Source: a virus
IMG/VR virus record: IMGVR_UViG_3300045988_039444
DNA length: 64,000 nt
Strand: one strand, 5' to 3'
The notes below the pieces were generated by a model. It was not told where the DNA came from and did not search any database. It saw only the letters and a list, made by a program, of their open reading frames with translations. A program made the translations under genes and the position numbers. This document shows positions 3,971-31,624 of this stretch, one piece after another. Position 1 is the first letter of the stretch; each line of letters opens with the position of its first letter.

Positions 3971-4018
3971 CAGACCGTCAGAGTGCCTATTTTCAGGCGT
4001 TCTGACGGTCTTTTTTTT
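3971..4018 (+). terminator. Rho-independent terminator for the plus-strand block.
   Basis: Perfect 11-bp stem AGACCGTCAGA…TCTGACGGTCT with an 18-nt loop, followed by T8 (4011-4018). Confidence 0.7.
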
Positions 4019-4040
4019 GTCAGTTAGACAAATGTACCAT

Positions 4041-4088
4041 TAACAAAAGATAATGCCCGTAGCAGGCTGGGAAGCACCGCCACGGGCA
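4041..4088 (-). terminator. Possible terminator for the minus-strand giant gene (convergent with the previous one).
   Basis: On the minus strand, GCCCGT…ACGGGC (6-bp GC stem, long loop) followed by ATTATCTTTTGTT, just 3' of the stop at 4114. Confidence 0.35.
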
Positions 4089-4113
4089 AATATCCGACGT
4101 TTACTCTATTAGA

Positions 4114-13100: not shown

Positions 13101-16100
13101 CAAGACCTTCCATAATCTGCTTAACTAACTGACCACCTAAAATAGTAGTTTCATCAAGCAAATCAGCTTTAATATCTTGTTGAATAACAAAATCACTATC
13201 TCGCATATAAAGAATAGACCTATCATCTACTCGATTTAGTGCTTCAATATCAAGACCACCTTGGTCATTATGAATTTTAACTGGTGTAATACCAGATACT
13301 TTAACAGCAGAAATAGGACTAACTTGGTCAATATTATTTTGAATCATCCAATCATATAATTGACCAATAGCACTACCTCGTGTCATACTTTCAAAAAGAA
13401 CAACAGTTGAGTCTTTTATTTGAACACTATCTACTTCATCAGCAAATATATCAACTTCATTACCAGTTACAGCCGGAGCATGATAAAAATCACCACGGCG
13501 ACGACGAGTTGTACCAAACAATTTAACTTGTTCTACAACCTTAGCGTAAGATGTAGGATTAAATGTTTTAGTCGGGTCTTGTAAATCAGTAATATATTGA
13601 TACAAAGGTTCACTTGGATTCCAACGACCAGTGGCTTTCAAAAGTTTAATAAGACCTGCATCAGTCATAATAGACTGAGAATCATTAATAGTAGCAGTAG
13701 CACGATAAGCATCCAAAATAGCTTCATTTTGAATACCCATTTTATCAAGAATATTGCTATTGAAATTCATATCTTCCATAACAACAACCTTACGAGGAGT
13801 ATCATTATGAATTAAATCAATAGAATTAAGACCATTCTTAATAACTTGTGCTACACGTTTATTGAGGTCTACTGTATCTTTATATTCTTCAATATCACCA
13901 TTAAATATAGCGTTCATACTATGATTATAGATAGTATGATTAAGTAATACTTTAAGTAAACTTAATCGAACACCATCATTATCCATAATATCATAAGTAG
14001 CAAGAACGTGCTGACGAGCGCTATTTAACAAACTTTCTTTCTTTAATGTAGGGATAGTATCAAGAGTATATTCTTTACCATCAGCTTTGCGACGTTTAAT
14101 CCAATCATTAGCTTTCTGATTATATACTTCTTGAACTAAATCTGCTAAATAACTATCGAAAGTAGTAACGACACTTGTATCAGTTTTGATATTAGTATCG
14201 TAAATACTTTTAGCAATATTTTCAAAACTATCAACACCAGTTGTAGCATTCCAACGAATGTAAGCAGCTACAAAATCTCGAATATTACCAGTATTAGCAA
14301 CAAGATTTTCATCGTAAGGTTCATTACGAACTTGTGCAATCATATTACGATAAACTTCTGTAACATCTACATTATTTATCTTTGCAATATGAGCAGGTAA
14401 TGTGATATTCTTACCATTCTCAATATAAGTAATATTCAAGAACTGAAACGCCTTACCAGTCGGAATACCTTTTGCATCATAAATAGCTCTACCATTCCAA
14501 TACTTTCGATTATGACGAGTTTTCATTTGAGCAAAATTCTCGTCGCTATTATCTCTTAATTGGAATATAATTTGTCCAAAAGTATTAAACTTAAAGACAT
14601 CACTATTTACAATCTTTTCGATAGAATGAAAAACATTGGATTCTTCATTTATCGGATTATCTGTTATACGAACAAACTTATTTCGTGCAACAATATTATC
14701 TAAATATTCAGTTACATAAGAATATATACGAGGAGCATGAGTAGCTAACCTACTACTAATACCATTCATCGGAAGATAAATATTTAATCCACGAGAAATA
14801 GCATCATTAATAAATGGAACTACTCGACTTTCAAAATCTTTTACATAGGCATCATAATCTGCATCAGTAAAATAATCTGTTGTCGTAGGTTTATTCGGAG
14901 TAATATTCTCACCCTTAAAACCATCAATTTCGATAGTATTTTTAAGACCTCGAATAGATTCTTGTCCAGATGTTGCTGGAGCACCTATCGCACGACTTTT
15001 AGTATTACCTGAGAAAATAAATACCGATTTAGGATGTGCTGCAACAGCGGCAGGTGTATAATTAGAACCAAAAGTCTTAACGTGAATTGAAGTACGAGGC
15101 TTAGAAGAATCTTTAATAAATAAATCATCAACTTCAAGTCGTTTTGTAGTCATCATATAACTACGAGGACTATCAGATGTTAAAAATACATATTGACCAA
15201 ACATATTAAGAATAACTTCGGTATATGTATAAAGAGCACCTTGTACTTCACGATATTTCAAACCTTTATTTCCAATCTTAACACCATTAAATGCAGATAA
15301 TGCAAACTGATAACGACGTTCAACATCAGAAATAAATACAGGATTTACTTCGTATTCACCAATACTATTTTTAGTGAATATACCAAGACCAGTCTTTTCA
15401 TCATAAATAAGAATATTATCTTCTGCACCCGGAGCAGTTAAAGTTGGGTCATTGAGATAATCCTTAAATATATGTTTAATATATTCAGTATTTACACCAG
15501 TACGAGTAACAAATCCACGAAGGAACTTTGTAAGCATACTATCATACTGAGGTGAATAATTAAGTTTACCTTGAACATCAAGATAACTCATATTCGTAAA
15601 ACTGTTAAAATCATAAGTAGCAATTTGTGCTAATGAATATAAATATCCATTAATATTATGTGCAGGAATTTCTTTGCCACGATATGTATTAACACGATGT
15701 TTAGTATCGTTAACTACATTTTCAAGAAGAGAATTAACTCTTGAATATACTTCATTAGCATTATCGTTCGCATTATAATATTGAGTAAGAGCATCACGAG
15801 TAATTGCTAATCCTAAATAATTAATTACAGACATCTGTTTATCTAACAGAGCTGCTTTATCAATCTTACTACGTCTTGAAATAGGTTCAAAAATACGTTT
15901 AGATTTAGGATTAGTATAAAGTACATCATTCAGATTATTATATAATCCAAATTCAATATTTGTACTTAAAATACTTTCAAATCTATCAATATATGTTTTA
16001 ACACCAAATGATTCTCGATTATTCTGATAAATCGTAGCATTATTACCACCTTCTAATGCCATAATATTTACAGGAATAACAGCAAGTTTAATTCCAGAAA

Positions 16101-17292
16101 TATAAGCATTTACAAAAGAATTATCATAATCAGAAGCAGCAGAACCATCATCTTCAAATACTCGTTGGAATATTTCAAGAATAGGAGTAAACTCATCATT
16201 TATAGCTGCAAGTTGTTGCAATCTATTATATACATCTTGAGGTTGAATATCGTAAAGATGTGCCTCAATAAGTTTATTCCATAAAACATTAATATCAATA
16301 GGAGCAGGAATATACGCTTTGTTAGCAGTTCTATTTTTGAAATTACTCGAACCTACAAGAAGAGCTATTTGAGCTTTAACATGAGATGCTAACGTATTCT
16401 TTCTGTCAATACGTTCTTTTTGCAAATCATCCCACATTACCTCAATATCTTCAATAACATCACGTTGTCCTTCTTCTGTACTTTCATCATCAACAATCCG
16501 ATTATTCTGATAAGCACGCTTACGATTAATACCATAGTTCTTATCAATATAATCAAGAAAATAATTAAAGATTTGACTATTACCTTTATTCAAATCAGTA
16601 AGTACATTTGCTACAAAAATATCGTTGAATCTTGTAGGAATAAAATTAGGTCGAGCTTTATACTCTTCAAGTTCTTTATTAAACTCAGCAAGAATTAAAG
16701 CCTTAAATCCACTACGAGAAACATCTCGATAATTAGCTCCAAAACGAGCTTGTCTTTGTTCCGCAGTAAGACCTTTTAACTTAAAGTAAGCAGCAGTTAA
16801 AACACGAGCCATATAAGCATAATCCATCTCATCAAATGTAGCAGTATTTACAATAGACGGATTAAAAGCGTGTTTAATATCAAGACCTAATGCGTTACCA
16901 AGAGATTCAAAATCTTTACGAATATCTTCACTATAAGTTTCATCTGTCGAAAGAGCAGCTAATACAGATTCTAATTTAAGTTCTCCACTTGTATAAACGG
17001 GATAACCCGTAGCTCCATAAGGAGTACGGGCATCCGCTTCTGCATATAAAAACGCTGTAAGAATACGACGCTTAAAAGCATTTTCTAATGACACATCAGC
17101 ATTATCTTCAGCATAACCTCGAATATTATTATAATCTTTAATAGTAGGTAAAACACCTTTTCCCATTAAAGATGTAATAATATCTTCAATAGGCTTAGTC
17201 TTAAAAGACTTCATTTGATGATAAAGACCAGATTTCTCAAGTCTTCCATCAGCAGTTAAACGATAAGGTTCAGGACTACATTGTGCATTCAT
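4114..17292 (-). CDS. Giant virion-type protein (4392 aa). Candidate crAss-like virion-packaged RNA polymerase, carrying a DFDID motif resembling the DxDGD/DbDGD catalytic loop of double-psi beta-barrel RNAPs.
   Basis: Uninterrupted 13.2-kb ORF in AT-rich DNA. Contains …TRTGWDFDIDSIYAYY… (encoded about 12222-12236). Sits at the distal end of the structural array, as giant RNAP-like proteins do in Crassvirales. The assignment is inference. Confidence 0.8.
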   Translation of the reverse strand: MNAQCSPEPYRLTADGRLEKSGLYHQMKSFKTKPIEDIITSLMGKGVLPTIKDYNNIRGYAEDNADVSLENAFKRRILTAFLYAEADARTPYGATGYPVYTSGELKLESVLAALSTDETYSEDIRKDFESLGNALGLDIKHAFNPSIVNTATFDEMDYAYMARVLTAAYFKLKGLTAEQRQARFGANYRDVSRSGFKALILAEFNKELEEYKARPNFIPTRFNDIFVANVLTDLNKGNSQIFNYFLDYIDKNYGINRKRAYQNNRIVDDESTEEGQRDVIEDIEVMWDDLQKERIDRKNTLASHVKAQIALLVGSSNFKNRTANKAYIPAPIDINVLWNKLIEAHLYDIQPQDVYNRLQQLAAINDEFTPILEIFQRVFEDDGSAASDYDNSFVNAYISGIKLAVIPVNIMALEGGNNATIYQNNRESFGVKTYIDRFESILSTNIEFGLYNNLNDVLYTNPKSKRIFEPISRRSKIDKAALLDKQMSVINYLGLAITRDALTQYYNANDNANEVYSRVNSLLENVVNDTKHRVNTYRGKEIPAHNINGYLYSLAQIATYDFNSFTNMSYLDVQGKLNYSPQYDSMLTKFLRGFVTRTGVNTEYIKHIFKDYLNDPTLTAPGAEDNILIYDEKTGLGIFTKNSIGEYEVNPVFISDVERRYQFALSAFNGVKIGNKGLKYREVQGALYTYTEVILNMFGQYVFLTSDSPRSYMMTTKRLEVDDLFIKDSSKPRTSIHVKTFGSNYTPAAVAAHPKSVFIFSGNTKSRAIGAPATSGQESIRGLKNTIEIDGFKGENITPNKPTTTDYFTDADYDAYVKDFESRVVPFINDAISRGLNIYLPMNGISSRLATHAPRIYSYVTEYLDNIVARNKFVRITDNPINEESNVFHSIEKIVNSDVFKFNTFGQIIFQLRDNSDENFAQMKTRHNRKYWNGRAIYDAKGIPTGKAFQFLNITYIENGKNITLPAHIAKINNVDVTEVYRNMIAQVRNEPYDENLVANTGNIRDFVAAYIRWNATTGVDSFENIAKSIYDTNIKTDTSVVTTFDSYLADLVQEVYNQKANDWIKRRKADGKEYTLDTIPTLKKESLLNSARQHVLATYDIMDNDGVRLSLLKVLLNHTIYNHSMNAIFNGDIEEYKDTVDLNKRVAQVIKNGLNSIDLIHNDTPRKVVVMEDMNFNSNILDKMGIQNEAILDAYRATATINDSQSIMTDAGLIKLLKATGRWNPSEPLYQYITDLQDPTKTFNPTSYAKVVEQVKLFGTTRRRRGDFYHAPAVTGNEVDIFADEVDSVQIKDSTVVLFESMTRGSAIGQLYDWMIQNNIDQVSPISAVKVSGITPVKIHNDQGGLDIEALNRVDDRSILYMRDSDFVIQQDIKADLLDETTILGGQLVKQIMEGLDWNNAIYELDGKNVTGKELFDEFQKTLATNIREDAMQLLYDIGGIDENGEIRTDARGAIQIDINKLVNRFQEIISDDVDAITIRKALEIKEDGLPIMPLSYPVIKGKLEKILASMLSKQVINKYLPGFHAPIRADIFTASNELIKHKEFYSDKELYNKTIDELVANGSITYASSFIKECKRTGRSLELQAEYREDGNYHYAEVIVNPWKMDFYKNIGTVKTITNEDGTTKDIITVDIDKLDVKARRMIGIRIPTEGKQSMVVFEVVGFLNNNATQAIFPQSLITRTGWDFDIDSIYAYYRNVIFEQDKYIPVEFKSKFDASQAQVGGKFTRSVFKQKYIELATTPQKFTNLTSHNFNAIIKWISRYYNPNLVPTNTNQSPLNNIIELIKEDLQDVKSNPEYTKILKSILHNLQYGFAKNYGDVNSLVREYLANKRDGVTEDFGNYTQTQRAYTSDLLIRAHKAINDLIKFVKNVNSQLATINISPDTISNFDTIKSKFQYLVEDTDKTIIPHLSAIQSNIDKAFNAFTKDFVQNESIYELNSREARDNHLIDIITAVLSNPNHAEEVNKPNGMAEIQAVSDRDNAFWNYTLKTLNPNNLMDKITLNNMSMGSTVLKGHSVNFDTLIATISTLHGRLLKGIRRKISLNSLPIPKGFTDRSEMYTVSDKGVPRLTSKYKEFLAKRYGAENIQLLPKENALWVNDVWINNDALNEHLDISGERVELQMNQFTSGILDVLKAGLGFNLNVHTLSVARAISSGVTIELYNGKANRFTNEDAFIHQPAIVEAVNRMEVQSLSRGNFTILDAVEAIRSDYSVELAKIYADLIVKKEITPVESHDAIMTVASGKSKTKTLTVGQLNELKDKLPNITINEISGKYGYQTTEELLDNIKNRDNRTADWLLRQISVLGNFVEYNEIATNLIDLNFMLKSESRVDSFFKADQKERKLAEYYYPVKALKELVNDKYNQTLRFIDEYIEENAGNPKAIDAIKAAFTRESSDAFRRHYKPKDVKGNPLAAITYSDMKRFRAELPKRNDIMTRRELIEDLAVGYETPNKVILDNGKDIIESIFVGSFEGYLDGNKFNDTENQSAYGVIQARYQYAHWLMANGFGDVFITRNHHITNTILGQILQRKNSIDESTYKYVTDSIMNYLVSINGGLDNGLVKVLPILTPDNTPEVLTTLGIHTEEQLKEQKLIFKTLLNTVKDGYTPESFTQYTKLSLAQQIQFIQKDSTLRDYIEKSPEFRGDNIFKYLTVRKNNRSVPYDVIRIQRDDNDVNSWSNMTDSILRMWDSKIPYIAHTIRQLLVYTYVTEGFNYAYNVSKYIPIELISTNRLNAEYDALCREVHYPDPSVNLGNYAENLRNAEKAVFDGNVDITPVMSLISRMKSDMNPVLLSDIQKRYRWEANKNKATIGYVQNANGENVGIGSYIDENGNTQNFYIETEARLINSEYANAEYVTERITRSKNRVYKRYKITTNTNNPLKDIYVFLPVNPLLRNEASLMTGDISIIPTYQEGMMAQVQKDGETIVTDRLSVIIDSDTIHKFMLAIDDNESVQMDENSDFNDANMIETEDAIDSTVDAETEDVIDTDVASVSDTDFEVLNSVEVTTPTFINIEHTHSSASDVIYNELESSATSIFITTQATHSFYKGYHKSAIQVDYNKSAYEEALRIAPMLKNGNLYINGDVLIDANRDFNYLDDWTKTFISNLYRINPIMTSVSTVLNDGVGRIVAETYIDVPRRNINIYGDNEKLYSRVVHADVPTRDGLRNSLVVDSNIAIETLKIMDRIQKFLNNNNVGNREEFMNILKSFDDESFEGGIQSALEERDIAAMKATYSRLANLSSSVYDAIKQLWAITKDLNYEEIRSNYGAALDYKDRLVMMLKLASHFSPYLTLEEIKIQDTVYDAESEEGKELFTKEFGELNNNIARLKSLATKVAGIRSNVIQSVKDVVTWAVIDKSRNPKYITAFSKIKEYLASHNGSLEGFDVNSVEITEDEWLEIQHLLFELDKDINKTQLWLDSAFTTGITLIDITGKAWDEANYKAKKAAQRINDELESALEEFQPGLSKNARAREKLMHKFINEYGDLIGSYKTEGLGDSTGTLRKDIRDAIYQNLYTDSGFVTRATAEKTLEIVDDIIKKYNENHTWNIVPLNDNEAAKHLAELTELSNREKLVYLQTHDLIELSLITDISGKRENVLYKLDFGNTPVSDEYAALSDKEQKLLNTIRNLIQRTIREYDGNWINYYGRWDEVMPFIPQATLGQSAKQFVSIPMIHKDRYYTDIDGTKRFVTKAQTLQVPKHIPVFNIRKKYKSESYTEYEARIVELFSEWFDKNNKLPVTVKPSTLREIRHYNDAVMLENKKYKANVMSYDIVDVMKGFTQELYNLRAINNFETDYQLTKYLMNERGVSGVAPRDIIKNANEQLNNMERRIFNFSKYNSALDVSAGALLRYTSMTFMYLNYTAGITNILKGVTDMIVESTANNFVESKDIMKSGLRDVIKTIPHFLRDINSTRTDDILVAIIKDFDDIYQDTRDVTSSDTGTSYWIKAMRMVDTVGYAPNNMGEFIMQFGMLLAATQSHRVVGGKIMAFNDFYNDNLEKLLQDVLTNEQYDKYLIFKEDLDAEIAREEKRTSKEYLWNHDYASQYLKSHYNLLSDEQRKKIVDSRKTDKKVQREAFDKYNTLRSELKLVNGRLSFNPESGLTEETLSEFRGRVKAINQSLHGIYNRVDRNSLQDAAFGDLLMQFKKWVRPNFVRYFGRRFGRIFYNEQLGSYEVPIFNPMFDMFRSGSQAFKDSLNDNNTVIDYMKGIGNFFKGVSSWLLNVGFYYNTLPLNEQIATMKFARLMGALAFSALAAMTLGAFKKDDDDEDNILYQHAMYAATTYYQQMIEPMPVFGWMATIEQTANSLFAGQKTLQSAYKLVNLTIQGLWVDDDELIYDRGIYKGQDKRAVALRQAVPVLRQINKFNNLGATMSYYNMYNPFGITFSGVREMISPKDSDNYEDE

Positions 17293-17295
17293 AAA

Positions 17296-20200
17296 CTAAC
17301 AAATTTTGTTATTATTGTCATCAATATATTTATCAATAAATTCGATTACATATCCACCGTTTGAAGATACAACATTTTTCTGATTATTCAAAACATTTTC
17401 AGAACTATTTGAAAAAACCTGACCAGTGGGCGTCAAACCCACTCCCCCACCGGGTATTACTATGTTCGGGCCAATATCAGAAACATCAAGACTATTAAGT
17501 GTTTCAGAATTATTGTCATCAAACGTAATTTCACCGTCATCATCAAGGAAATCCAATTCAGCTTGAGCTGCTCTTTGATTTTCTGTCAGAGGTACATCAG
17601 ATGTTTTAATAGGTTCCGTAACTGATAAATTATCATGTGTTGCATCATTTGTAACATTAGTTTGATTAGTTGTAACTGAGGTTGGCTCCGCTGCTGGGCT
17701 TCGCCCAGCGCTCCGCTCCCCGGTGGGAGAGGAGGTTGCACGCCCACTGGTCGGACTTTTTGCGCGTCGGCTATTCACACTATCCAAACTATTAATTACT
17801 ATATTTCGTACATTACTAAGTAAACTATTATCTGTAATTGTATCTATACCAATAACAGAAAGAATTGCATCAATAATTTTATCCCAAAGACTTTTACGTT
17901 TCTTGATCTTCGGAGCTTCTTCTACGATAATTCTATTTGCCAAATTAGCAAACTGTTTATTTGTAAAAGCATAAGTAACTATTTCAGCAGGAGTTTCACT
18001 TAATATTTTAAGATATGTACGAAGATAACCAAGTTCAAGTTCAGTTAAATCGCTCTTATATTTAGCATTAAATTCTTTAGCGTCAACCTTAAATGCGGTA
18101 TCATTAATATCGCTAATTAATGTAGCAAGTTTATCGTATAATTCTTTAGAATTAGCTTGTTGTTCAAAATACTTATGAAGAGATTCATGAGTAATATTAA
18201 CACCTAAATCAGTAGCAGTAAAATCACGTTTAGTAAGTTTATTACTATTGATAACGATAGTTTCAGTACCTTTATCATATTGAGCAATTATGAAATCTTG
18301 TTTACTCGATAGTTTCTTAATACTGAAATTAGTTTTACCATCAGCATAAATTCTATCATATAATTCAGCGATTCTGTTAGCAACATCTTCAGATACAAAA
18401 TCAGGTATAACACCTAATACCCTAAGACCTGCTACTTTATCATCTGTAATATTAACAAGTTTTTGATACCAGTTTGTTTCAGTATCACTTGTCATTGAAC
18501 TTAATGTTGTAATTGCTTTAACAGCAAATTCTTTCGTCATATCTTCTGATTCTCGAATAGGATTATCAGAACTTTCAGATTTAAGTTCAAAGAACATTGC
18601 AGGTTGAATAGAATCAATAGTATAATTGGTAACAACATTACCATTGGTATCTCTAATTCCAATAACACTTGTTGTTAAAGCGCCGGTGTCAAGAATAAAA
18701 TCTTGCATCGAATCAAATGTTGAAGAAACAGATTTATCAACGATACCTTGTTGTTTAGCCCAATCAAGTATTTTAGATTTATATTGACCTTTAACTGCTG
18801 CGTAACCATCATCTGTTTTAACACCATAAGTATAATGGTCGCCTTGCAATGCAGTAGTAACACTACGTTGCATATTACCATACAGTTTACGGAATAGATT
18901 ATGATTAAGTAAATCAGTTAAATCTTTACCAGTAATACCTCTTGCTTGCAAATCAATTACAGCGTAAGTTCCTTTGTTAGATTTACTCTTTTCAATAATA
19001 CCATTTAATTGAGCAAGTTCTCGTGCTGTAAAAGGACTCTTAGCAATACGAACTTTTGAAGTAGTTCTATTAACTGGAATTACTCTACGACTTAATCGAA
19101 GTTTAACAGGAGTAAATTTATCACCAGATTTAGTATATTCAATACTAATTCTATTGATATAACTTATTCCATTTCCAAGTATATTCTTTTTACGAACAAC
19201 TGTTTGGAAATCTAAATGTTTAATATAACGAGTTTTTCCAGTAGCAGGGTCTGTATTTTCGTAAAGAGAACTAATGTTAAACCATTCAGCTCCCGGAACT
19301 CCACGATTATAACTTGTAATGATAGCTTCTGATAAAGGAGCTAATCGACTACGAATATTAGCATTGTGAGCTTTAGTTCGAGTCTTATTAGTATCATCTA
19401 CAAGAGTATACAGACCAGATTTAGCATCAGTCGGAAGAGATGTAAACGTAGCATCTGAAATAATATCACTCATAGTTTGAGTAACAAATTCCATAGCAGC
19501 TACATTAAACGGTGTATCTGCAACATCACTTACTAAATTACCACGATGTAACGGAACATAACTTTTTCCATTTTCACCAGCATTAGCTTGAATTTCAGCA
19601 TACATTTGGAAATGCCTATCAGATGAAGTAATTTTATCTTCAACAATAGGATTATTAAATGCAGTGTCAGTAGTAAGTGATGAAACTAACATTAAACCAT
19701 CAGCATCAGGCTGACGTTGAATAATATTAACAGCAGGTTTACCATTAACTGTAACAGTACGTTGCATCTCTTCATTTACATTAGCTCGATAACCACTTGA
19801 ATCGGCAAATGTAATAGGAGATTTATTAATACCTTTTAATACTAAAATTGCAGAACCTTTTTCTTTAATTTCAGTAACAAGTTTTTGACTTTGAATAAAG
19901 TCATTTCCAAGTTTAGTATTTAGATTCTGATAAGCGTTCTTGATTCTAAGTCCATAACGAACATAATCATTAAGATTTTTAAGTCTTACGTTATAAAACA
20001 TAGGACTAATAAGATAATAAACCTTATTTAAATCAAGAGCTTCAATATCAAACGCTTCAGGACTAACACCTTCGACTTCGGTATTATATTGGATAGCTCC
20101 AATAAAAGCATTGATTATTTCAGAATGTTCAGTTTTTGATGTATTACCATATTTATCTAATTCTTTAATAATTGATTTCAGTTTTGAAACAACTGAATCA

Positions 20201-23200
20201 GAATTTTGTTGTTCACGAGTTAAGGCTTCAGTATATACTTTATAAAACTCTTTTGTTAAGTTAAATATTGTATCACTTCCACCAGCTTTTCTGATAATAG
20301 TATCTATAAATTTAGATGTTCCATAAGAATTACCAAAAGCAGAATCATATTGATTAACTCCACTTTCATCAATTCTACCTAATTGGATTCCATGATAAGT
20401 TTCACTATCACCTAAACCAATTCGTTCAATTAATAGTTTCTTACCATTTACATCTAAATTGACATCGACATTACCATCTTTATAAATAACTTCAAATTCC
20501 TGACCTTCGTGTAAAGTTCTTAAAGCATCAAATAATTCAGTAGCCTTGAATTTAACACCATTAACTGTAATGTTGTTCTTAATAACACGAGTTTTAGGAT
20601 TATAATATTCAGGACTTGTGATAATCTTATAAACTTCAGGTGTAAGACGACGTAAACCTTTGAAACCATTAGTTTCAAATTCACGTTGAATATGAGTTTT
20701 GAAGAAATCACTTAAAAACTTACCACGAAGATTTAAGTTACTATCAAGATAAGCACCGTCTGTTGTTTGAATAGGATTAGCAATTCGTTTATTAATAATA
20801 TCAAACAAACGTTTAAGAGCATCAAGTTGTTCTTGTGGAACACCATTCTTACTCATTTGTTGATATATTGTATTAACATTTACATCATTTTTAAAATATT
20901 TAAGTGCATACCAGATAGGTTCATAATATTTGATAACATCATTACGACCATCTGTTTGCTGATATATAGAATCAAGAATATCTTCGTAAGTATAAACGTG
21001 ATTATCAGTAAATATCTGACGACCATCGAGTTTTACAATAGTATTTTCAATAGCATCAAGAGCATTACGCATTGAATCACTAATATAATAACGATAGTCA
21101 TTAGTATTAAACTCATCTCTCGATTCAGTATCATCTATAAAGTCAGAAACACTGTTAGCAAGTACATCAAGACTATTAAGAATAGATACATCATCGTTTA
21201 ATTCAGTACCACTTTCAAAATTATAATATCTCGAAAGAATAGAATAAGCCATTCGAGCATTTCTTAATAAATCAAGAACATTACTTTGACGAACAGCAGT
21301 AATAACATCCACACCAGTAAGATTCAAAGCATCAACATCAGATACCAAATAAGGTTGAATTGATTGAGCTAATGTATGAAGTCTTGTACGAGCAGGAAGA
21401 TTAGGAACAGCACCATATTCTAAAAACTCTTTTGCTAAATTATTTACGGCAGTAGCAAATTCCATAATTTTAGAAGTTTGACTACCAAAGCCATCATCAT
21501 TTACAAGAGCATCATGTAACGGACTATCTTCATCTTGTCTAATAGCACGAATTTTACTAATAAATCTATTCATCACACTATTAATATATGCGATATTAGT
21601 TTTGTAAAATTCAGTTGTACTTTTAGCTACTTCATTAATAATACTATTTTTGAATAGAGTTATCTTATGATAGAAATTTGAATATCTAACAGTATCAAAA
21701 TTACTATTAAGATTTTCAAATTTAATTTGAGTAAGACCTTCAATTTGTGCTCGAATTACATTATGGTCTACATTAATATTCTTAAGAGTTAATTTACCAT
21801 CAGTTATAATATAATTATTGTTAAGAACATTAGCAACGTTAGCAATATAGTCAGTAATAGCTTCACGCATTTTAGCATTTTCCTCTTCACTATAACCAAC
21901 TATATCACCACCGTAAAGATTCCAAATCCAATCTTTGAAAAGATTAGATTTAAGATTATTTGCAATACGGATATTGCTATCTGATAATAACTGTTTTACA
22001 CGATTAGTTTTTTCTAAATTTTCATTACTAATTTCAGTAGGTTGATATTCATTTATCCAACCAATAAAATTACCAATAATAGTAGTTCGTAACGTATTAA
22101 GTTCAGTATTATCAATAGGAGATAATAATGCTTTATAAGTATCACTATTAGAATCAGATAATTCTTTATACAGATTTATAATAGTATCTAAATAATGATT
22201 CTCAAATTTATCTGCTGAAAGTTTATCTTGAATACTATAAAGTGTTTTATAAATAGCATCAAATTTAGTTTGAACTTCACTTCGAATTTCAGTAATATCC
22301 ATACCTGCAAGTTCTTTTGCAGAATATGTATCTTCTTTACCAGTCGAATCATCTTTTATAGTAACCATTACAGCATTAAAATCGGTTTCGTCGTCGGTTA
22401 CGACCTCGATTCTTTGCACGGTTTTGGGCGATTCTGCGACATTAAATTTTGAGCCTACCGAATATACCTTATTTTTAATATCGACGGTATTTGGGGCCTC
22501 GCTGTCATCGAGAGAGTACGAAATCCCGTTACTGTCTGTTAGCACCTCGGTAGTAACATTTTCGGGTTCTTGACTTGCTTCTTGATTAGTAGTTTCAGTA
22601 GTTTCTTCTACTTTATCTTTAGCTTTTTCAATCTCTTCTTGTTTATCATAAACTTCTTTAAGTAACTTACTTCGTTCAGCCATAATCTCATCTCGATTAT
22701 TAACATTTTCTTCGAGAGCCATTACAGCCATACTCAGTTGAGTTCGAGCTTCTTCAAGAGATTTATATGTTTGATTATTGTTATTGCGAGTTTCACGCAA
22801 ACGTTTTGCAGCTTCATTATATTCAGCTACATTGTTATTTTCACGTTCACTCTGTTTTGCAATATCGCTATTAATTCTATTAAGTCTTGCATCGTAATCA
22901 GCTAAATCATTTTCAAATAATTCAATCTTCCTACGAGTATCAGCAATCTCACCATTATGAATAGCAAGTTCTTGTTCGTATTGAAGTTTACCAACTTCTA
23001 ATTCTGCAATAGCTTGACGAGCATTTGCAATTTGTTGTTGAAGACTTAAAATAGATTTCTTACTATTTTTAATTTCAAGAAGATAAGGTTTACGAGCTTT
23101 ACGATTAGGTTGTTTTGTACTAATAGCACCTTGATTAGCAATATAAGTATTTAACTCATCAATTTGAGATTGTAAACCATTGATTGTATCTTCAATAGTT

Positions 23201-25272
23201 TTAATCTTATTTACTAATCGAGTACGCTTACCTTTAAGTGTACTAATCGCTTTATTACGAGTTTTATCTTCAAGCTGAGTTTTATAATCTTCAATAACTT
23301 TTTGCAGTTCTTCACGTTCTTGTTCAAGAACAGTTTTTTCTACATTTAAACTATGAAGTTTACTATCAATAGCTTTAAGGGCTTCATCTCGTTGCTTACG
23401 AAGATTAGACGCTTCAATATCGAAAGTTTGAATATCAGTATCAACGATAGCTAATTGACGACGATAATAGTCAAGTAAATAATCATCAGTTGATGCCTGA
23501 ACTTTAAGAACATTGTCGAAAGGATTACCCCAACTTAAACCCATATTACGAGCATGAATATCTCGCATAATAGTAAATTCTCTACGAAGAGCATCTACGA
23601 CAGGTCGTTTATTAGCACCGTAAACTTCTTCAAGTTGAGCATCTGATAATTTACTTAATTCATCAAAATATTCAACAGCATAATTGAATCCATTAGCAGA
23701 ACCAATTCTACCCATAATACCAACAAGTAAATTTGAAGCAGGGTCAGTAATAGTTCTATTAACTTTCGGAGTACCATCATTATTCATAACTTGATTACCA
23801 GCTTCATCTAAAACTGGTATTTCAGTTACTTTAATATTCATATCACCGTCAAAATCAGCAATAGCTGCGGCAGTATCTTGAATACCATTTATAATGTTAG
23901 TAGCTCGCTTATTTTCAGCTTCTTGTTGAGCTTTACCATTAAGTATTCGTGTAACACCACTACGTCCAGCAGACATTACACCACCACCGATAGCACCCCA
24001 AATAAAACTATCCCATGAAGAAGCTTGTTCAACAAGTCTTCCCATACGAGCTAACGGAGTTAAATCAGCAGTTTCATCTTCAATTCCAAGTTCTTTCTTT
24101 GCGGCAACGACACCTTCATTAAGTGCCATATCAACTCGCATTTCTTCAAGACCTTCAGATAAAGCAACAGAAAAGAAATCTTTTGTTTTACGAAGTCCAA
24201 TACTCGGAATAAGTTTACGATTAAGTTTAGATGCTTCACTATCTAAAACAAAAGTCTTACCTTGTTGTGCAAGACCTTTTATATTACTTCTTAAACCCTT
24301 TTCAATAGAAATACTATTAACTGGAGCTTCTCTAATACCACGAAGCATACTATTGAGTTCAATAGCATTAAATAATACTCCATAAGCCCAAGCATCATTG
24401 TAACTTTCAGAAGCATAAACAGATGCAAACTTACGAGCATCATCTTCACTGAAACCTAAATCGAGAGCATATTGATATTGTTCATCATAACCACGAACAA
24501 TTTCTTCCATACTATCGAGATGTGCTCCGTATAAAGTACCAATTATCTGTTGAGTATAAGGATTTTGTAATGCACGACCTGCTTTATTCAATGCAGAACC
24601 TAAACGGCCAACACCGTTAATCATGGTTCCTAATTTACCAACAGCTTGTAAAGCTCGCATTTGTCCAATAACAGGAAGCATAGATGCGGCCGCAGAACCT
24701 ACGGTAGGAAACATACTTGCCCACCAAGTAGCATCACCCATACCACCAGCAAAACCACCTTTTTGAGCTTGTTCTGTTTGATAAATAGGAATTGCTTTAC
24801 GACCCCAATTTTCAATATCTTTACCTATTCTCTGCCATTCAGAACCAAGACCTTCGTTGATAGCTTTGTCCCATTTATATTTGGCATTATCATCCCATAT
24901 TTGACTAATAGCACGATATGTAGTAGGAAAGAAATTAAGAATACTACCAATACCAGTAATAGTACCACCGAAAATAGTAGTTCCTAATTGACCAATAGCA
25001 TTTTTAGTTAAATACCAACCACTTTGATTTTGTGCTCTATTTTCGTTAAGAACACTTAAATCAAGATTAGGATTAACTTGACCTCGACCTAATATATTTT
25101 CGTATTCAGAAATATTAAAAGGTCGAATTGAAGATTGTTTTGCACCACGAGCTTTTTCTATTTCCATGCTCGGTAAAACAGGAGTAGCTCCTACTCCAGA
25201 AACTTGTGTTTCAACCGGAGTAAGAGCTTGAGAACCTGTAATAGGAATCTTAATATCTGTTAAATTTGGCAT
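17296..25272 (-). CDS. Giant virion/ejection-type protein (2658 aa) with an N-terminal Gly-rich hydrophobic region and a long coiled-coil. Tape-measure- or internal-cargo-like.
   Basis: Uninterrupted 8-kb ORF. Gly-rich segments (GGFAGGMGDATWWASMF…, VGKLGTMINGVGRLGSALNKAG) and a ~400-aa heptad-rich coiled coil. The C-terminal region carries one full and one partial in-frame copy of the GC-rich element. Confidence 0.8.
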   Translation of the reverse strand: MPNLTDIKIPITGSQALTPVETQVSGVGATPVLPSMEIEKARGAKQSSIRPFNISEYENILGRGQVNPNLDLSVLNENRAQNQSGWYLTKNAIGQLGTTIFGGTITGIGSILNFFPTTYRAISQIWDDNAKYKWDKAINEGLGSEWQRIGKDIENWGRKAIPIYQTEQAQKGGFAGGMGDATWWASMFPTVGSAAASMLPVIGQMRALQAVGKLGTMINGVGRLGSALNKAGRALQNPYTQQIIGTLYGAHLDSMEEIVRGYDEQYQYALDLGFSEDDARKFASVYASESYNDAWAYGVLFNAIELNSMLRGIREAPVNSISIEKGLRSNIKGLAQQGKTFVLDSEASKLNRKLIPSIGLRKTKDFFSVALSEGLEEMRVDMALNEGVVAAKKELGIEDETADLTPLARMGRLVEQASSWDSFIWGAIGGGVMSAGRSGVTRILNGKAQQEAENKRATNIINGIQDTAAAIADFDGDMNIKVTEIPVLDEAGNQVMNNDGTPKVNRTITDPASNLLVGIMGRIGSANGFNYAVEYFDELSKLSDAQLEEVYGANKRPVVDALRREFTIMRDIHARNMGLSWGNPFDNVLKVQASTDDYLLDYYRRQLAIVDTDIQTFDIEASNLRKQRDEALKAIDSKLHSLNVEKTVLEQEREELQKVIEDYKTQLEDKTRNKAISTLKGKRTRLVNKIKTIEDTINGLQSQIDELNTYIANQGAISTKQPNRKARKPYLLEIKNSKKSILSLQQQIANARQAIAELEVGKLQYEQELAIHNGEIADTRRKIELFENDLADYDARLNRINSDIAKQSERENNNVAEYNEAAKRLRETRNNNNQTYKSLEEARTQLSMAVMALEENVNNRDEIMAERSKLLKEVYDKQEEIEKAKDKVEETTETTNQEASQEPENVTTEVLTDSNGISYSLDDSEAPNTVDIKNKVYSVGSKFNVAESPKTVQRIEVVTDDETDFNAVMVTIKDDSTGKEDTYSAKELAGMDITEIRSEVQTKFDAIYKTLYSIQDKLSADKFENHYLDTIINLYKELSDSNSDTYKALLSPIDNTELNTLRTTIIGNFIGWINEYQPTEISNENLEKTNRVKQLLSDSNIRIANNLKSNLFKDWIWNLYGGDIVGYSEEENAKMREAITDYIANVANVLNNNYIITDGKLTLKNINVDHNVIRAQIEGLTQIKFENLNSNFDTVRYSNFYHKITLFKNSIINEVAKSTTEFYKTNIAYINSVMNRFISKIRAIRQDEDSPLHDALVNDDGFGSQTSKIMEFATAVNNLAKEFLEYGAVPNLPARTRLHTLAQSIQPYLVSDVDALNLTGVDVITAVRQSNVLDLLRNARMAYSILSRYYNFESGTELNDDVSILNSLDVLANSVSDFIDDTESRDEFNTNDYRYYISDSMRNALDAIENTIVKLDGRQIFTDNHVYTYEDILDSIYQQTDGRNDVIKYYEPIWYALKYFKNDVNVNTIYQQMSKNGVPQEQLDALKRLFDIINKRIANPIQTTDGAYLDSNLNLRGKFLSDFFKTHIQREFETNGFKGLRRLTPEVYKIITSPEYYNPKTRVIKNNITVNGVKFKATELFDALRTLHEGQEFEVIYKDGNVDVNLDVNGKKLLIERIGLGDSETYHGIQLGRIDESGVNQYDSAFGNSYGTSKFIDTIIRKAGGSDTIFNLTKEFYKVYTEALTREQQNSDSVVSKLKSIIKELDKYGNTSKTEHSEIINAFIGAIQYNTEVEGVSPEAFDIEALDLNKVYYLISPMFYNVRLKNLNDYVRYGLRIKNAYQNLNTKLGNDFIQSQKLVTEIKEKGSAILVLKGINKSPITFADSSGYRANVNEEMQRTVTVNGKPAVNIIQRQPDADGLMLVSSLTTDTAFNNPIVEDKITSSDRHFQMYAEIQANAGENGKSYVPLHRGNLVSDVADTPFNVAAMEFVTQTMSDIISDATFTSLPTDAKSGLYTLVDDTNKTRTKAHNANIRSRLAPLSEAIITSYNRGVPGAEWFNISSLYENTDPATGKTRYIKHLDFQTVVRKKNILGNGISYINRISIEYTKSGDKFTPVKLRLSRRVIPVNRTTSKVRIAKSPFTARELAQLNGIIEKSKSNKGTYAVIDLQARGITGKDLTDLLNHNLFRKLYGNMQRSVTTALQGDHYTYGVKTDDGYAAVKGQYKSKILDWAKQQGIVDKSVSSTFDSMQDFILDTGALTTSVIGIRDTNGNVVTNYTIDSIQPAMFFELKSESSDNPIRESEDMTKEFAVKAITTLSSMTSDTETNWYQKLVNITDDKVAGLRVLGVIPDFVSEDVANRIAELYDRIYADGKTNFSIKKLSSKQDFIIAQYDKGTETIVINSNKLTKRDFTATDLGVNITHESLHKYFEQQANSKELYDKLATLISDINDTAFKVDAKEFNAKYKSDLTELELGYLRTYLKILSETPAEIVTYAFTNKQFANLANRIIVEEAPKIKKRKSLWDKIIDAILSVIGIDTITDNSLLSNVRNIVINSLDSVNSRRAKSPTSGRATSSPTGERSAGRSPAAEPTSVTTNQTNVTNDATHDNLSVTEPIKTSDVPLTENQRAAQAELDFLDDDGEITFDDNNSETLNSLDVSDIGPNIVIPGGGVGLTPTGQVFSNSSENVLNNQKNVVSSNGGYVIEFIDKYIDDNNNKIC
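17421..17454. repeat. GC-rich repeat element, partial/degenerate core-only copy. Lies inside the 2658-aa CDS, in frame.
   Basis: GACCAGTGGGCGTCAAACCCACTCCCCCACCGGG versus consensus GACAAGTGGGCGTGCAACCTCCTGCCCCACCGGG, about 85% identity. Translated as …GVGLTPTGQ… within the ORF. Confidence 0.7.
17684..17752. repeat. GC-rich repeat element, full copy with a CTGGGC-TTC-GCCCAG hairpin. Inserted in frame within the 2658-aa CDS.
   Basis: GGCTCCGCTGCTGGGCTTCGCCCAGCGCTCCGCTCCCCGGTGGGAGAGGAGGTTGCACGCCCACTGGTCGG. Encodes …SPTSGRATSSPTGERSAGRSPAAEP… on the minus strand. The ORF continues about 390 nt beyond it, so the insertion is within coding sequence. Confidence 0.85.
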
Positions 25273-28200: not shown

Positions 28201-28297
28201 AAGCATTTCCAACAGCAGCATATACACTTCCATAATCTTGTAATTGTGGAGTTTTTAATGTATTAGTATCGTATCGACCTATTGCAATTTCTGCCAT
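25277..28297 (-). CDS. Large virion/tail-associated protein (about 1006 aa from the internal Met; the ORF track extends it to 28405 through the GC element).
   Basis: Long ORF. The start is placed at ATG 28297-28295 (MAEIAIGRY…), because the upstream 36 codons (MGVQPPAPPGSGAAGRSPAGG…) are the stop-free GC-rich element read in frame. The longer start cannot be excluded. Confidence 0.7.
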   Translation of the reverse strand: MAEIAIGRYDTNTLKTPQLQDYGSVYAAVGNALNQKYYQNREAYINRIANPLSQIKVTSRGQKVLDSERAKIVEGANEFKEQDNWFAADDYIYKQTENILTNEGLKAVQADYALEQQYIEDLKKSDWDTQNQNAFLLRSRLQSSDIVYDAETNTVVSGGFNGVQIGKKFDVNKYQKDVFDILSKAKADKVSFENLVTNPDMIRQYGLDVATGFDGEKLASHFVKTGSEREGITEQEIMSYAMSLLKSNPDYTNYLTTIWQNQDALTRFVKDDSSAGGHLRDYELEDYAPLFAGNPTMFALNGLGINVNELGAPTKDGKFTVNSKLPAEVKTLLDTVNKEYGVNVLDILQNKVQVPPELIQAGLQNYVDKMFESYAKGVLGATDDIENLDRTAFTQSVLSGQFINNNIQSLAGAAAGLYSYQDIKTTVGLIANPGYTAYVKARAKGKQQELETLQQYAPYLDTLGGFEVTGDSVAENINRRNEITDQMTKLSNSMNQIFTSDELGILGLNPGDGNIVKTLNISTAERLVDSAGLDEETAANLKGKLLQVQTAQRNYNNLQAKLRSDEIQLNSIFDTWNKHRDKIEGGIGWYRVNNEEAKIILDNRLDSYDKYVDYINQNYKELYNPETYSSTWVRKDGVTTGAKYLGDMLTKEEFESTLSNAADNVSNRYRKAIADAPLEFTATREIIANPSRFQQNYMAAAMVNWKKGAGNISVVQTSSGEGIGLTGMQLAKYMNFDAFPTSTTINSKGTSVTRQSNATKNSKPLSGKELGLDYDIYKTEVSPIANGIAAREGRNEYAITLFDETGAARGNIIFSEQIDPSTIARQILDNYRNIKPYAKIGGEGLQRSAGMIESQYASGFIDFDTTGANNSPAVANIADLQRTVDDLGKVEYNLNIHEPFNNSIDGNSRKVEIGRTTQGYYIKDISGLTYTDGSVHYGQFGYNAIPNSLYTINGITTNNIQYYDTINEALRPISEYVLTQYGILLDMQEAAEAIQNNRINNANIGY

Positions 28298-28333
28298 AAT
28301 TTTATAATGATTAGTTTGTAAATTAGTTGTAAC

Positions 28334-28412
28334 TCGTATGGCTCCGCCTGCTGGGCTTCGCCCAGCGGCTCCGCTCCCCGGTGGGGCAGGAGGTTGCACG
28401 CCCACTTGTCGC
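28334..28412. repeat. GC-rich repeat element, full copy (CTGGGC-TTC-GCCCAG hairpin flanked by direct GCTCCGC). Intergenic between the 1005-aa and 1042-aa genes.
   Basis: …CTCGTATGGCTCCGCCTGCTGGGCTTCGCCCAGCGGCTCCGCTCCCCGGTGGGGCAGGAGGTTGCACGCCCACTTGTCGCG. Confidence 0.9.
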
Positions 28413-28510
28413 GCGTGTTTGTACCACTATTTGTATCATTACAAATATACAAAAAATCGTGAATATCGGACTATCCTATAAAAGAATAATCCGATATATC
28501 ACGCATCATA

Positions 28511-31528: not shown

Positions 31529-31550
31529 ACCATTAAAAGTTTGAGTAACA

Positions 31551-31617
31551 CGACAAGTGGGCGTGCAACCTCCTGCCCCACCGGGGAGCGAGGCCGAAGG
31601 CCGAGCCGCACAAGTTG
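31551..31617. repeat. GC-rich repeat element, full copy in opposite orientation (GGCC-GAA-GGCC hairpin), flanked by direct ACAAGT. Intergenic between the 1424-aa and 1005-aa genes.
   Basis: CGACAAGTGGGCGTGCAACCTCCTGCCCCACCGGGGAGCGAGGCCGAAGGCCGAGCCGCACAAGTTG. Confidence 0.9.
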
Positions 31618-31624
31618 TTACAAA

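Follow-up and report, generated by a model that had tools for sequence, protein, structure and literature searches.

A dispersed GC-rich repeat family of a crAss-like phage, with in-frame coding copies that appear to evolve in concert

Closest Described Systems

Rickettsia palindromic elements (RPEs) are dispersed palindromic repeats of an AT-rich genome, some of which are read in frame within surface or linker regions of proteins and keep their orthologous positions; the units of RPE-1 to RPE-10 measure roughly 100–150 nt. Yeast mitochondrial GC clusters are short and palindromic, lie mostly between genes and are spread or homogenised by gene conversion, with an optional in-frame cluster in var1. 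Among phages, Arbiol, Comeau and Krisch reportedly described in 2010 the PeSL cassettes of T4-type phages, said to be intergenic stem-loops upstream of genes that form recombination junctions between modules. PeSLs contain a recognisable sigma-70 early promoter and do not occur inside ORFs. The crAss-like phages are among the most abundant human-gut viruses; to our knowledge their regulatory signals are almost unknown, and we are aware of no promoter motif found for their virion RNA polymerase. The palindromes of REP/RAYT systems carry a GTAG or CGTC tag at one end (PMC3733652). The early-promoter hairpin of phage N4 possesses a 3-nt G-N-A loop stabilised by a sheared G:A pair (PMC4496689), and the crAss-like virion polymerase uses single-stranded DNA efficiently as a transcription template and double-stranded DNA poorly, with no early promoter motif known (preprint 10.1101/2020.03.07.982082).

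The window analysed here, a 64,000-nt stretch from IMG/VR record IMGVR_UViG_3300045988_039444 (~31% GC), belongs to a crAss-like phage of the Crevaviridae and contains a GC-rich repeat family that recalls several of these systems. As with RPEs, it is a palindromic family in an AT-rich genome, with in-frame copies whose orthologous positions are kept across related genomes. Unlike RPEs, its units span 30–90 nt, the genome is that of a lytic phage, the copies are concerted, GC-rich synonymous sites are kept and the net insertion amounts to 3–4 aa; moreover, the family is known from this phage lineage only and probably bears no sequence relation to RPEs. Yeast mitochondrial GC clusters offer a second likeness, namely GC-rich palindromes in an AT-rich genome that are mostly intergenic and sometimes in frame, but they belong to another host system, their sequences are unrelated, and close strains of the phage showed no present/absent alleles. 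REP and BIME elements resemble the family in being repeated imperfect palindromes of 20–40 nt, mostly intergenic and in both orientations, but the phage repeat has a low copy number and some coding copies and displays no consistent GTAG or CGTC tag: its 5′ flanks differ among copies (CGTGACA, CGCGACA, CGTCACG, CCGACC and CGTCAAA), so no fixed tag is present. No RAYT (IS200/IS605-like TnpA) was found among the window proteins scanned with Pfam or PHROGs, with ~28 kb of the genome lying outside the window.

Two phage systems complete the comparison. PeSLs share with the present family repeated stem-loops upstream of phage genes and the joining of one right flank to different left flanks, which is seen here at two sites in different strains; the present repeats differ in being without a demonstrated promoter and in lying partly inside ORFs. 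As in the N4 promoter hairpins and d(GCGNAGC) mini-hairpins, a GC-rich stem of 5–7 bp carries a G-N-A loop whose ends are invariant while the stem covaries. N4, however, has three early promoters at one genome end and a T7-like polymerase, whereas the hairpin described here is optional, dispersed through late genes and found in both orientations. The presence/absence polymorphism among close relatives that characterises MITEs was not seen. No description of such elements in crAss-like phages was found in the literature searched.

Copies and Distribution of the Repeat Family

A pattern search with the core AGTGGGCGTnnAACCnnCTnnCCCACCGGG retrieved seven matches in the window, referred to as c1–c7 in order of position: three on the plus strand (3836–3865, 17425–17454 and 31556–31585) and four on the minus strand (17719–17748, 28377–28406, 37857–37886 and 51544–51573). 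None is expected by chance, given that 100 of 100 shuffled windows contained no match, and an nhmmer search of the window recovered no copy beyond the seven. A GC-rich patch at 12105–12144, which by eye resembles a decayed copy, received no nhmmer support and was set aside.

Copies c1, c4, c5 and c7 are full and intergenic. Directly after the last plus-strand gene (stop at 3826), c1 (3828–3904, plus strand) is composed of the core, a hairpin AGCCC-GAA-GGGCT with a tandem G.A base (3868–3890) and the 3′ box ATGTTACAAC. Copy c4 (28325–28414, minus strand) ends ~35 nt before a 1006-aa gene (ATG at 28297). The GTG start (28405) listed for this gene as a "1042-aa" ORF falls within c4, and the ATG at 28297, giving 1006 aa, is likely the true start. 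Between the 1424-aa (muzzle) gene and a 1005-aa gene, c5 (31548–31623, plus strand) is oriented opposite to transcription. Finally, c7 (51512–51581, minus strand), with the hairpin loop GCA, is preceded by a terminator-like hairpin and sits ~55 nt upstream of a small membrane-protein ORF.

Three of the seven copies are translated in frame, c2 and c3 in a 2658-aa gene and c6 in a 237-aa gene. An earlier note on this DNA had proposed these three as in-frame members of one GC-rich family; their positions were confirmed, the ORFs read through them, and the assignment to a single family is supported. That note had missed the inverted arrangement of c3 and c2, the GTG start within c4 and the sites outside the window. 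These number approximately 8–9, for a total of roughly 15 per ~92-kb genome. A fourth in-gene copy, likewise in frame, lies outside the window in a gene whose product, from our reading of its motif, resembles a family-4 uracil-DNA glycosylase.

At least 120 stretches in IMG/VR match the core, and the species is represented by dozens of complete ~90-kb metagenome contigs. A metagenome scan with alignment A4 reached the same species only, among the 80 loci kept; a viral-contig scan with the core type of lineages L192, L195 and L196 retrieved two loci only, and megablast of positions 15000–20000 against GenBank phages gave no match. A scan of 185,579 bacterial and archaeal genomes yielded no repeat arrays with the core and no Bacteroidales matches, only single chance matches in high-GC bacteria and two apparent mis-binned phage contigs. 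Across the IMG/VR and genome scans the family is confined to this phage lineage and, judged by this distribution, is not host-borne.

Element Architecture and the Second Hairpin

The repeat unit is built from a 30-nt core, in which 8-nt imperfectly inverted arms (CCAGTGGG and CCCACCGG) flank a variable centre; an optional second hairpin whose base is a tandem G.A and whose triloop is C-GNA-G; and the 3′ box ACAAGTTAC. Most copies bear (A)CAAGT at both ends, and since this sequence is identical across sites, it may belong to the element rather than represent a target-site duplication.

The GNA loop recurs in 13 distinct GC-rich stems of the second hairpin, with one AAA singleton. Orthologous c1 copies from two species are three double compensatory stem changes apart, and the GNA loop always lies on the strand of the element itself, c5 included, although that copy runs antisense to transcription. 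By these substitution patterns, the second hairpin is maintained by compensatory changes, with its strand fixed regardless of transcription direction. It is missing from the in-gene copies except c3. The core displays no consistently covarying structure, and a GGG-to-GTG change in L196 is uncompensated. Single-copy folding energies were not clearly better than those of shuffles (z-scores of −0.2 to −2.7), and no tRNA or tmRNA was found.

One explanation for such hairpins is that they act as DNA signals for a co-evolving phage or host enzyme, whether as N4-type virion-polymerase promoters, priming or origin sites, nick sites or recombination hotspots. A GC-rich stem of 4–10 bp with a 3-nt G-N-A loop is the N4 early-promoter hairpin motif (PMC4496689), and the crAss-like virion polymerase favours single-stranded DNA (preprint 10.1101/2020.03.07.982082). 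Furthermore, from genus to genus the family consensus shifts as a single block, and the common right flank with different left flanks at two sites suggests recombination junctions. We nevertheless regard this explanation as quite improbable, as the copies occupy the late, structural region in both orientations rather than positions upstream of early genes, the second hairpin is missing at the same sites in several lineages (L196), and no cognate enzyme was found. A shared promoter-like motif, TTACAA, was also considered upstream of genes; it is suggestive at a few starts and not systematic.

Far less probable still is a structured RNA of known class, either an HDV-like self-cleaving ribozyme or a CRISPR-repeat mimic. 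The core can be drawn by hand with P1 (GUGGG/CCCAC), P3 (GCA/UGC) and CCUCC within L3, with a variable P4-like hairpin downstream, and the element is similar in length to CRISPR repeats. However, P2 pairing is inconsistent across copies, for which reason the HDV-like fold was rejected, and P3 is broken in the in-gene variants. Rfam returned no match for the whole window at gathering thresholds and nothing relevant at E ≤ 10 around c5. The occurrence of copies in both orientations and inside ORFs also speaks against a known RNA class, and the genome scan, with no core arrays in 185,579 bacterial and archaeal genomes, led to the rejection of both CRISPR-repeat mimicry and a host-genome origin.

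A Copy in the Ring-2 Gene

The 237-aa ORF (37545–38258, minus strand) encodes CrAss_Ring_2 (PF25702), a virion neck ring protein; a fold search matched it to 7qog_C, and a PDB sequence search gave no match. Its short-form copy, c6 (37843–37893, minus strand), combines the core at 37857–37886 with a degenerate version of the 3′ box, CCACGAGCTTAT; its translation is QSGRPTCSPTGYPRAY, the ORF reading QSGRPTCSPTG. The copy encodes residues 125–134, which fall in a predicted coil (125–136) between a helix (117–124) and a strand (137–142). For this copy, the structure prediction called for by the earlier note thus bears out a loop location.

In lineages L156, L192, L194, L195, L196 and L197, c6 occupies the same site with unchanged orientation, in genomes of 26–31% GC and with Ring-2 identities of 59–96%, among them phages at 59–72%. 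It is also present in 17 of 17 viral-contig Ring-2 loci; three rare ENA contigs, one of them low-coverage, carry in-frame deletions next to or including c6. Codon composition sets the copy apart from its gene: GC3 is 0.60 in the Ring-2 core versus 0.063 in the rest of the gene, and synonymous-codon identity is 0.80 versus 0.52. Judged by sequence comparison, the nucleotide sequence of the in-gene copies is conserved beyond protein needs.

Distant Ring-2 orthologues (cr127_1, crAss002, cr8_1 and the whole clade in A7) are 4 aa, or 12 nt, shorter at the site, and the other 21 nt align to native or decayed sequence; in cr127_1 the site holds AT-rich, unrelated DNA. The expectation that relatives would lack an insert of ~23 aa was not borne out, every relative down to 59% identity in Ring-2 and 66% in the tail of the 2658-aa protein having kept the copies. 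What had been pictured as clean insertions of that size are instead replacements that add a net 3–4 aa to a pre-existing loop.

Concerted Change Among Copies

Paralogous cores within a genome differ at 2.7 of 30 positions, versus 6.1 of 30 for orthologous cores between genomes. The Ring-2 copy shares lineage-specific substitutions with intergenic copies of the same genome. In L196 its core is identical to that of the c5 site, including the GGG-to-GTG change, which is nonsynonymous (Gly to Val) in Ring-2, and in the 042075 genome a change from CCCACC to CCTACC is common to the Ring-2, c3 and c1 copies. The c4 and c5 sites of L192, L195 and L196 are oriented as in the window. On this evidence, copies within one genome evolve in concert, and the sequence patterns make gene conversion a candidate process. 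Within 20 kb of the Ring-2 copy, L194 and L197 have no further copy, so conversion from a nearby donor can account for only part of the pattern unless these genomes carry copies farther away. Close relatives provided no empty site or recent insertion, and the searches turned up no trans-acting factor (transposase, RAYT or recombinase); within the window, the LAGLIDADG enzyme of an intein in the terminase was the sole endonuclease seen.

These comparisons bear directly on the possibility that the elements are RPE-like and selfish, were inserted in frame, and now persist in genes as old copies slowly decaying under protein-level constraint. In-frame translation, placement in loops or linkers, the 4 aa fewer in distant orthologues and the lack of a second hairpin in in-gene copies other than c3 all agree with it. 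So do AT-drifted remnants at the Ring-2 site of cr127_1 and L198 (TTCCCTCCTAAT; TCCCTTCCTACAGGG), which imply that decay does occur in some lineages. Yet the Ring-2 core retains GC-rich synonymous codons in seven lineages and tracks the intergenic copies of its own genome, and in-gene cores vary no more within the species than the coding sequence around them. Clean empty sites were found in no relative, and the net length change is 12 nt, not ~70. We consider ongoing decay unlikely. The likeness to RPEs advanced in the earlier note thus stands for an in-frame family, a loop location and shorter distant orthologues; its view of degenerate in-gene copies as older insertions in decay is contradicted by GC3, by synonymous identity and by the tracking of intergenic copies.

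An Inverted Pair in the 2658-aa Gene

The 2658-aa ORF (17296–25272, minus strand) encodes a zincin-protease protein, carried as virion cargo and bearing the zincin motif ITHESLHK, and ends 3 nt before the start of a 4392-aa gene. Its full copy, c3 (17668–17761, minus strand), comprises the 5′ flank AAAAAGTCCGACC on the gene strand, the core at 17719–17748, the hairpin GCTGGGC-GAA-GCCCAGC (~17693–17709) and the 3′ box CAGTTACAAC (17669–17678), and is translated as ...KSPTSGRATSSPTGERSAGRSPAAEPTSVTT... The core-only copy c2 (17412–17460, plus strand; core 17425–17454) has the opposite orientation and lies ~125 nt upstream of the 4392-aa gene start. The ORF reads through both copies (...SPTSGRATSSPTGERSAGRSPAAEP... 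and ...PGGGVGLTPTGQ..., the latter being the translation of c2), which form an inverted pair with 43-nt arms that are 81% complementary and 264 nt apart, so that the C-terminal tail of the protein runs from c3 through an acidic 88-codon spacer to c2. Beyond c3 the ORF continues for 388 nt, in agreement with the ~390 nt given earlier. It does not end at the element, because both cr127_1 (NLKIC) and a relative with 66% identity conserve its C-terminus (...NNNKIC).

In L132 (66% aa identity) the two copies have kept their place and orientation, and all strains whose region is complete (75 of the 94 loci fetched) carry both. This core is missing from cr127_1, the nearest named relative; at the equivalent position its orthologue possesses its own perfect 30-nt inverted GC-rich pair of different sequence, and no empty site for c2 or c3 was found. 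A homologue search with the 535-aa C-terminal tail gave no match, and one with the 1006-aa protein returned same-species proteins only, reaching no distant orthologues of the pair. That two genera share the placement of an inverted pair shortly before the RNA polymerase gene points tentatively to a specific role.

One such role could be that of a long-range RNA helix in the late polycistronic mRNA, 125–430 nt upstream of the virion RNA polymerase gene, serving as an RNase III processing site or as a translation or stability control element. Its placement within the upstream ORF would then follow from the gap of just 3 nt between the two giant genes. The 43-nt arms share an extra flank, AAAAAnnCnGACC, that is absent from other copies, and helix prediction gives z = −6.4 for the window and z = −9.9 for cr127_1, whose 30 bp pair perfectly. 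The same gene, tail position and inverted layout recur in two genera despite different arm sequences, and the pair is also found in L132. Among 72 distinct strain sequences, however, substitutions in one arm are never matched in the other; cleavage at this position would strip the stop codon from the upstream mRNA; and the solitary copies in the Ring-2 gene, the glycosylase-like gene and intergenic sites are left unexplained. The comparison covers three lineages, and we judge a functional helix improbable.

The same layout could, in principle, flank an invertible segment of the shufflon or Gin/Cin type that alters the protein C-terminus. The spacers between the inverted repeats are divisible by three (264, 237 and 171 nt), inversion would keep the downstream frame, and the inverted cr127_1 version is open. 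In contrast, the inverted version acquires stop codons in the window (3) and in L132 (4), no recombinase was seen, and 75 complete strain sequences revealed no inverted allele, with 68 confirmed in forward orientation and 7 unscored because the probe matched neither orientation. Inversion is hardly credible and, for this species, effectively refuted.

Proposed Explanation and Implications

The reading we favour, with a probability of about 0.5, is that of an old GC-rich palindromic repeat family with stable positions, comparable in kind to REP elements, RPEs or yeast mitochondrial GC clusters. Maintenance would act on the nucleic acid, and a coding copy would be tolerated where the protein can accommodate the loop it encodes. 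Some copies occupy the spaces between late genes, and others are embedded in coding sequence, where they replaced a native loop with a Gly/Pro/Thr/Ser/Arg loop only 3–4 aa longer. Embedded copies lie in the loop of Ring-2, in the protease cargo protein's tail and in the uracil-DNA-glycosylase-like gene outside the window. The element would function or spread as DNA, by forming hairpins or cruciforms, and its copies would be kept alike by ectopic gene conversion, by the recognition of one trans-acting factor, or by both. Coding copies would then persist because of this nucleic-acid-level maintenance combined with a harmless encoded loop. The element may be purely selfish, or it may also serve as a regulatory or recombination cassette before late genes, including the virion RNA polymerase gene.

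A more tentative proposal, possible but on the doubtful side, is that the elements are functional cis-acting signals of the Crevaviridae, placed in coding sequence and read by a single co-evolving phage or host factor. Signals would be written into coding sequence because the late operon leaves no intergenic room. They might be DNA hairpin signals for a virion RNA polymerase that prefers single strands or for the replication machinery, or they might form a long-range RNA helix controlling expression of the virion polymerase gene. Either version, if true, would explain the genus-wide joint rewriting of copies, including nonsynonymous changes in a virion protein.

Within structural genes, the repeat family overrides codon usage and even amino acid sequence, and it is rewritten jointly in each lineage. 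It may thereby provide a handle on a cis/trans recognition system, or a clear phage example of a selfish GC-rich element held by gene conversion against strong AT pressure. The elements also have practical consequences: they mislead gene callers, as with the 1042-aa versus 1006-aa start, and they break assemblies, many contigs ending at c3.

Copies and Anatomy of the Repeat Family

The window (~31% GC) carries most genes on its minus strand, among them giant ORFs of 4392 and 2658 aa, a crAss-type major head protein, a portal-sized ORF and a terminase-sized ORF (60012-63380, minus strand; 1122 aa versus 781 aa in cr127_1), which has Hint and LAGLIDADG homing-endonuclease domains at residues ~354-631 and so carries an intein. 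Among named phages, cr127_1 (Kahucivirus intestinalis, Crevaviridae) is closest; its major capsid protein is 72% identical, and no match was found at the nucleotide level. Human-gut metagenomes commonly contain the window species, with many ~90 kb contigs that are 97-99% identical to it.

A 40-nt GC scan of the window retrieved seven related islands. The degenerate 30-nt core AGTGGGCGTnnAACCnnCTnnCCCACCGGG, which as written defines orientation A, matched exactly seven times (0 of 100 shuffles matched), and nhmmer found no further copies in the window. The intergenic cores are c1 (3836-3865, A on plus), c4 (28377-28406, A on minus), c5 (31556-31585, A on plus) and c7 (51544-51573, A on minus). 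Cores c2 (17425-17454, A on plus) and c3 (17719-17748, A on minus) lie within the 2658-aa ORF and c6 (37857-37886, A on minus) within the 237-aa ORF; both ORFs read through their copies, and the coordinates, translations and in-frame placement given in the earlier note are correct. Copy c1 starts directly behind the stop of the last gene on the plus strand; c4 and c7 end 35-55 nt before a start codon. The listed GTG start (28405) of the ORF at 25277-28405 (minus strand) falls within c4; the true start is likely ATG 28297, giving 1006 aa, and public gene calls for this gene are divided between 1042 and 1006 aa.

In the core, imperfectly inverted arms (CCAGTGGG / CCCACCGG) flank a centre of 12-15 nt that holds most of the variation. 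This centre contains AACCTCCT, and a cr127_1 copy (MT774393.1, 11898-11942) has GGAACACCTC; both look similar to the 3'-terminal anti-Shine-Dalgarno sequence of Bacteroidetes 16S rRNA, and the opposite strand reads AGGAGG. Most copies end 3' in (A)CAAGTT(A/G)CA(A)C, and at the 5' end ACAAGT is also found, directly before GGGCG. Full copies add a second hairpin whose stem varies across sites and species through compensatory changes (GCTGGGC/GCCCAGC, GCTGTGC/GCACAGC, GGCC/GGCC, AGCCC/GGGCT, GGGCC/GGCCC and GGGTGC/GCACCC, for example); the c1 orthologues of the window species and of a relative, contig 042075, are three double compensatory changes apart. The 3-nt loop is G-N-A (GAA, GCA, GGA or GTA) in 13/13 GC-rich variants, with one AAA singleton, and a tandem G.A pair forms the hairpin base. 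Rfam gave no match at gathering thresholds across the window and nothing relevant at E<=10 around c5, excluding a known RNA family.

These purine features (GNA loop and tandem G.A) all reside on the A strand, including at c5, where A is the template and not the mRNA strand. With its strand fixed in this way, the GNA hairpin is more suggestive of DNA than of mRNA. N4 virion-polymerase promoters also display a G-N-A triloop hairpin motif (PMC4496689), and the crAss-like virion polymerase, whose promoter motif is not known, prefers single-stranded templates (10.1101/2020.03.07.982082). A possible N4-like hairpin signal for the virion polymerase is a lead; the location of copies in the late region and their occurrence in both orientations speak against their being simple promoters.

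An Ancient Copy in the Ring-2 Gene

The 237-aa protein is CrAss_Ring_2 (PF25702), for which 80 homologues were found. Its AlphaFold model (mean pLDDT 64) best matches 7qog_C, chain C of the phicrAss001 portal assembly, and c6 encodes residues 125-134, a predicted coil flanked by a helix (117-124) and a strand (137-142). The copy lengthens a loop that already existed by a net 12 nt. In alignment, many orthologues, with identities as low as ~51%, have SGRxTxxPTG; a second clade, including cr127_1, is missing the four residues SGRx and mostly retains xxPTG, and distant Intestiviridae orthologues have neither.

The nucleotide level decides the matter: six other lineages with genomes of 26-31% GC use the element codons AGT GGG CGT GCA ACC ... 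CCT ACC GGC. Synonymous-codon identity at identical amino acids is 0.80 in the Ring-2 core versus 0.52 in the rest of the gene, and GC3 is 0.60 versus 0.063. One relative (L193) keeps just the 3' 21 nt, yet these are GC-rich, and the sites in cr127_1 and another relative (L198) are AT-drifted remnants. Codon conservation across lineages, the GC-rich core and the remnants elsewhere together show that the Ring-2 copy is ancient; some lineages actively keep it, and others have lost it.

Three rare in-frame deletion variants of this gene occur in ENA contigs (L199, L200 and L201; variants P0001, P0002 and P0005). A 57-nt deletion runs precisely up to the core's 5' boundary, one of 66 nt removes the core between GTAT microhomologies, and the third leaves it untouched; at least the deletion in L199 (coverage 1.7x) may be an artefact.

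An Inverted Pair in the 2658-aa Gene

As the earlier note stated, c3 is internal to coding sequence: the ORF extends 388 nt beyond it, and conservation of its last residues (NNNKIC) extends to two other genera-level relatives. Copies c3 and c2 are mutually inverted, with 43-nt arms that are 81% complementary and spaced by 264 nt, and have in common an extra 5' flank, AAAAAnnCnGACC, that is absent from the other copies. The 66%-identical orthologue in contig 042075 (L132) contains both copies at identical residue positions. The genome of cr127_1 contains no copy of the window's core, and the tail of the protein is only 27-32% identical; at the equivalent place, its orthologue gp_26486 has a different GC-rich sequence, CGGAACGCCCTCCCGCCCTTGTGGCCAATA, as a perfect inverted pair of 30 nt with 171-nt spacing. 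As RNA, each of the two pairs is predicted to fold into a long-range helix (window z = -6.4; cr127_1 z = -9.9).

That two genera conserve an inverted pair directly upstream of the polymerase gene is the clearest pointer to a specific function. We keep this reading as a rival because only three lineages were examined and arm covariation was not found: across the strain sequences, substitutions in one arm of c3/c2 never had a counterpart in the other. For the window species an invertible switch is ruled out, since inverting the intervening segment keeps the frame but generates stop codons (in the window and in L132), and no inverted allele was detected among 75 complete strain sequences (68 confirmed forward, 7 unscored). 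Many same-species metagenome contigs (L266-L272, L275-L280; some genome-length, ~89-92 kb) end in the c3 region, at query residues 384-404; assembly breakage at the inverted repeat is the most likely cause, and a physical end or nick is possible.

Concerted Evolution and Proposed Maintenance

In one relative (L196), the Ring-2 copy and the intergenic c5-site copy are identical (AGTGTGCGCGCAACCCACTCCCCTACCGGC), both carrying GGG to GTG (Gly to Val in Ring-2) and CGT to CGC; L195, L192 and contig 042075 each have copy-shared states of their own. Over the 30-nt core, paralogues within a genome differ by a mean of 2.7 nt versus 6.1 nt for the same site in different genomes. Orientation at the c5 and c4 sites is constant across lineages, so the copies predate the splits and must since have been homogenised. 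Among near-identical strains, the core centre varies at some intergenic sites, with variant states matching those at other sites, and at two sites one right flank is joined to differing left flanks; both patterns are consistent with ectopic exchange.

Such data contradict the proposal in the earlier note that in-gene copies are old insertions passively decaying: core GC3, synonymous identity and the paralogue versus orthologue distances all oppose it, and within the species in-gene cores are no more variable than flanking codons. Selection on the protein does not account for the GC3 values, nor for copies that lie between genes or for the presence of both orientations.

IMG/VR contigs of the window species widely carry the core, and ~8-9 further sites lie outside the window. 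These include a fourth in-frame copy (L016, 4909-4938, B orientation, PGGGAGCTPT) that replaces a native glycine-rich loop for a net ~+3 aa, in a gene that, judged by a motif in its product, probably encodes a family-4 uracil-DNA glycosylase-like protein. A third cr127_1 copy, solitary and intergenic, directly follows a uracil-DNA glycosylase gene and is succeeded by GTTACAAC repeats. A scan of 185,579 bacterial and archaeal genomes found no bacterial genome carrying the family, excluding host-derived repeats and CRISPR-repeat mimicry.

With protein selection, known RNAs, host origin, a switch and decay set aside, what remains is a repeat family that would be maintained at the nucleic-acid level, through homogenisation by gene conversion, constraint by a common recognition factor, or both, with coding copies tolerated as protein loops. 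The likeness to Rickettsia palindromic elements (RPEs) suggested previously is one of behaviour; yeast mitochondrial GC clusters are closer in this respect, and the copies between genes are similar to REP elements and T4 PeSL cassettes. The data do not support placing the repeats in any of these four families, RPEs included, and our literature search found no account of such elements in crAss-like phages.

Other GC-Rich Sequences

In cr107_1, from the unrelated crAss family Intestiviridae, GC-rich patches unrelated to the window core occur at L158 1006-1058, 3296-3350 and 4372-4423. Two lie in the orthologous 'peptidase' giant gene, inverted, 2.3 kb apart and with CCTCTAYGGGGGAA in common, and the third is intergenic, 3' of the gene. 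The phenomenon may therefore be broader, and element families of their own may exist in other crAss lineages. A 506-aa gene of a 26%-GC relative (L192) contains two GC-rich patches (1935-1968 and 2334-2378) unrelated to the core.

The convergent gene-block junction by c1 (3965-4020 and 4047-4101) has one classic intrinsic terminator (a GACGGTC... hairpin, then a T-run) together with another GC-rich hairpin (GCCCGT...ACGGGC), which is conserved in contig 042075 (L034, 1475-1509). A 62% GC stretch in the 1005-aa gene (30042-30129, minus strand), unrelated to the repeat family, apparently encodes an Ala/Gly-rich low-complexity run, judging from the DNA; similar runs are present in L193 and L194.
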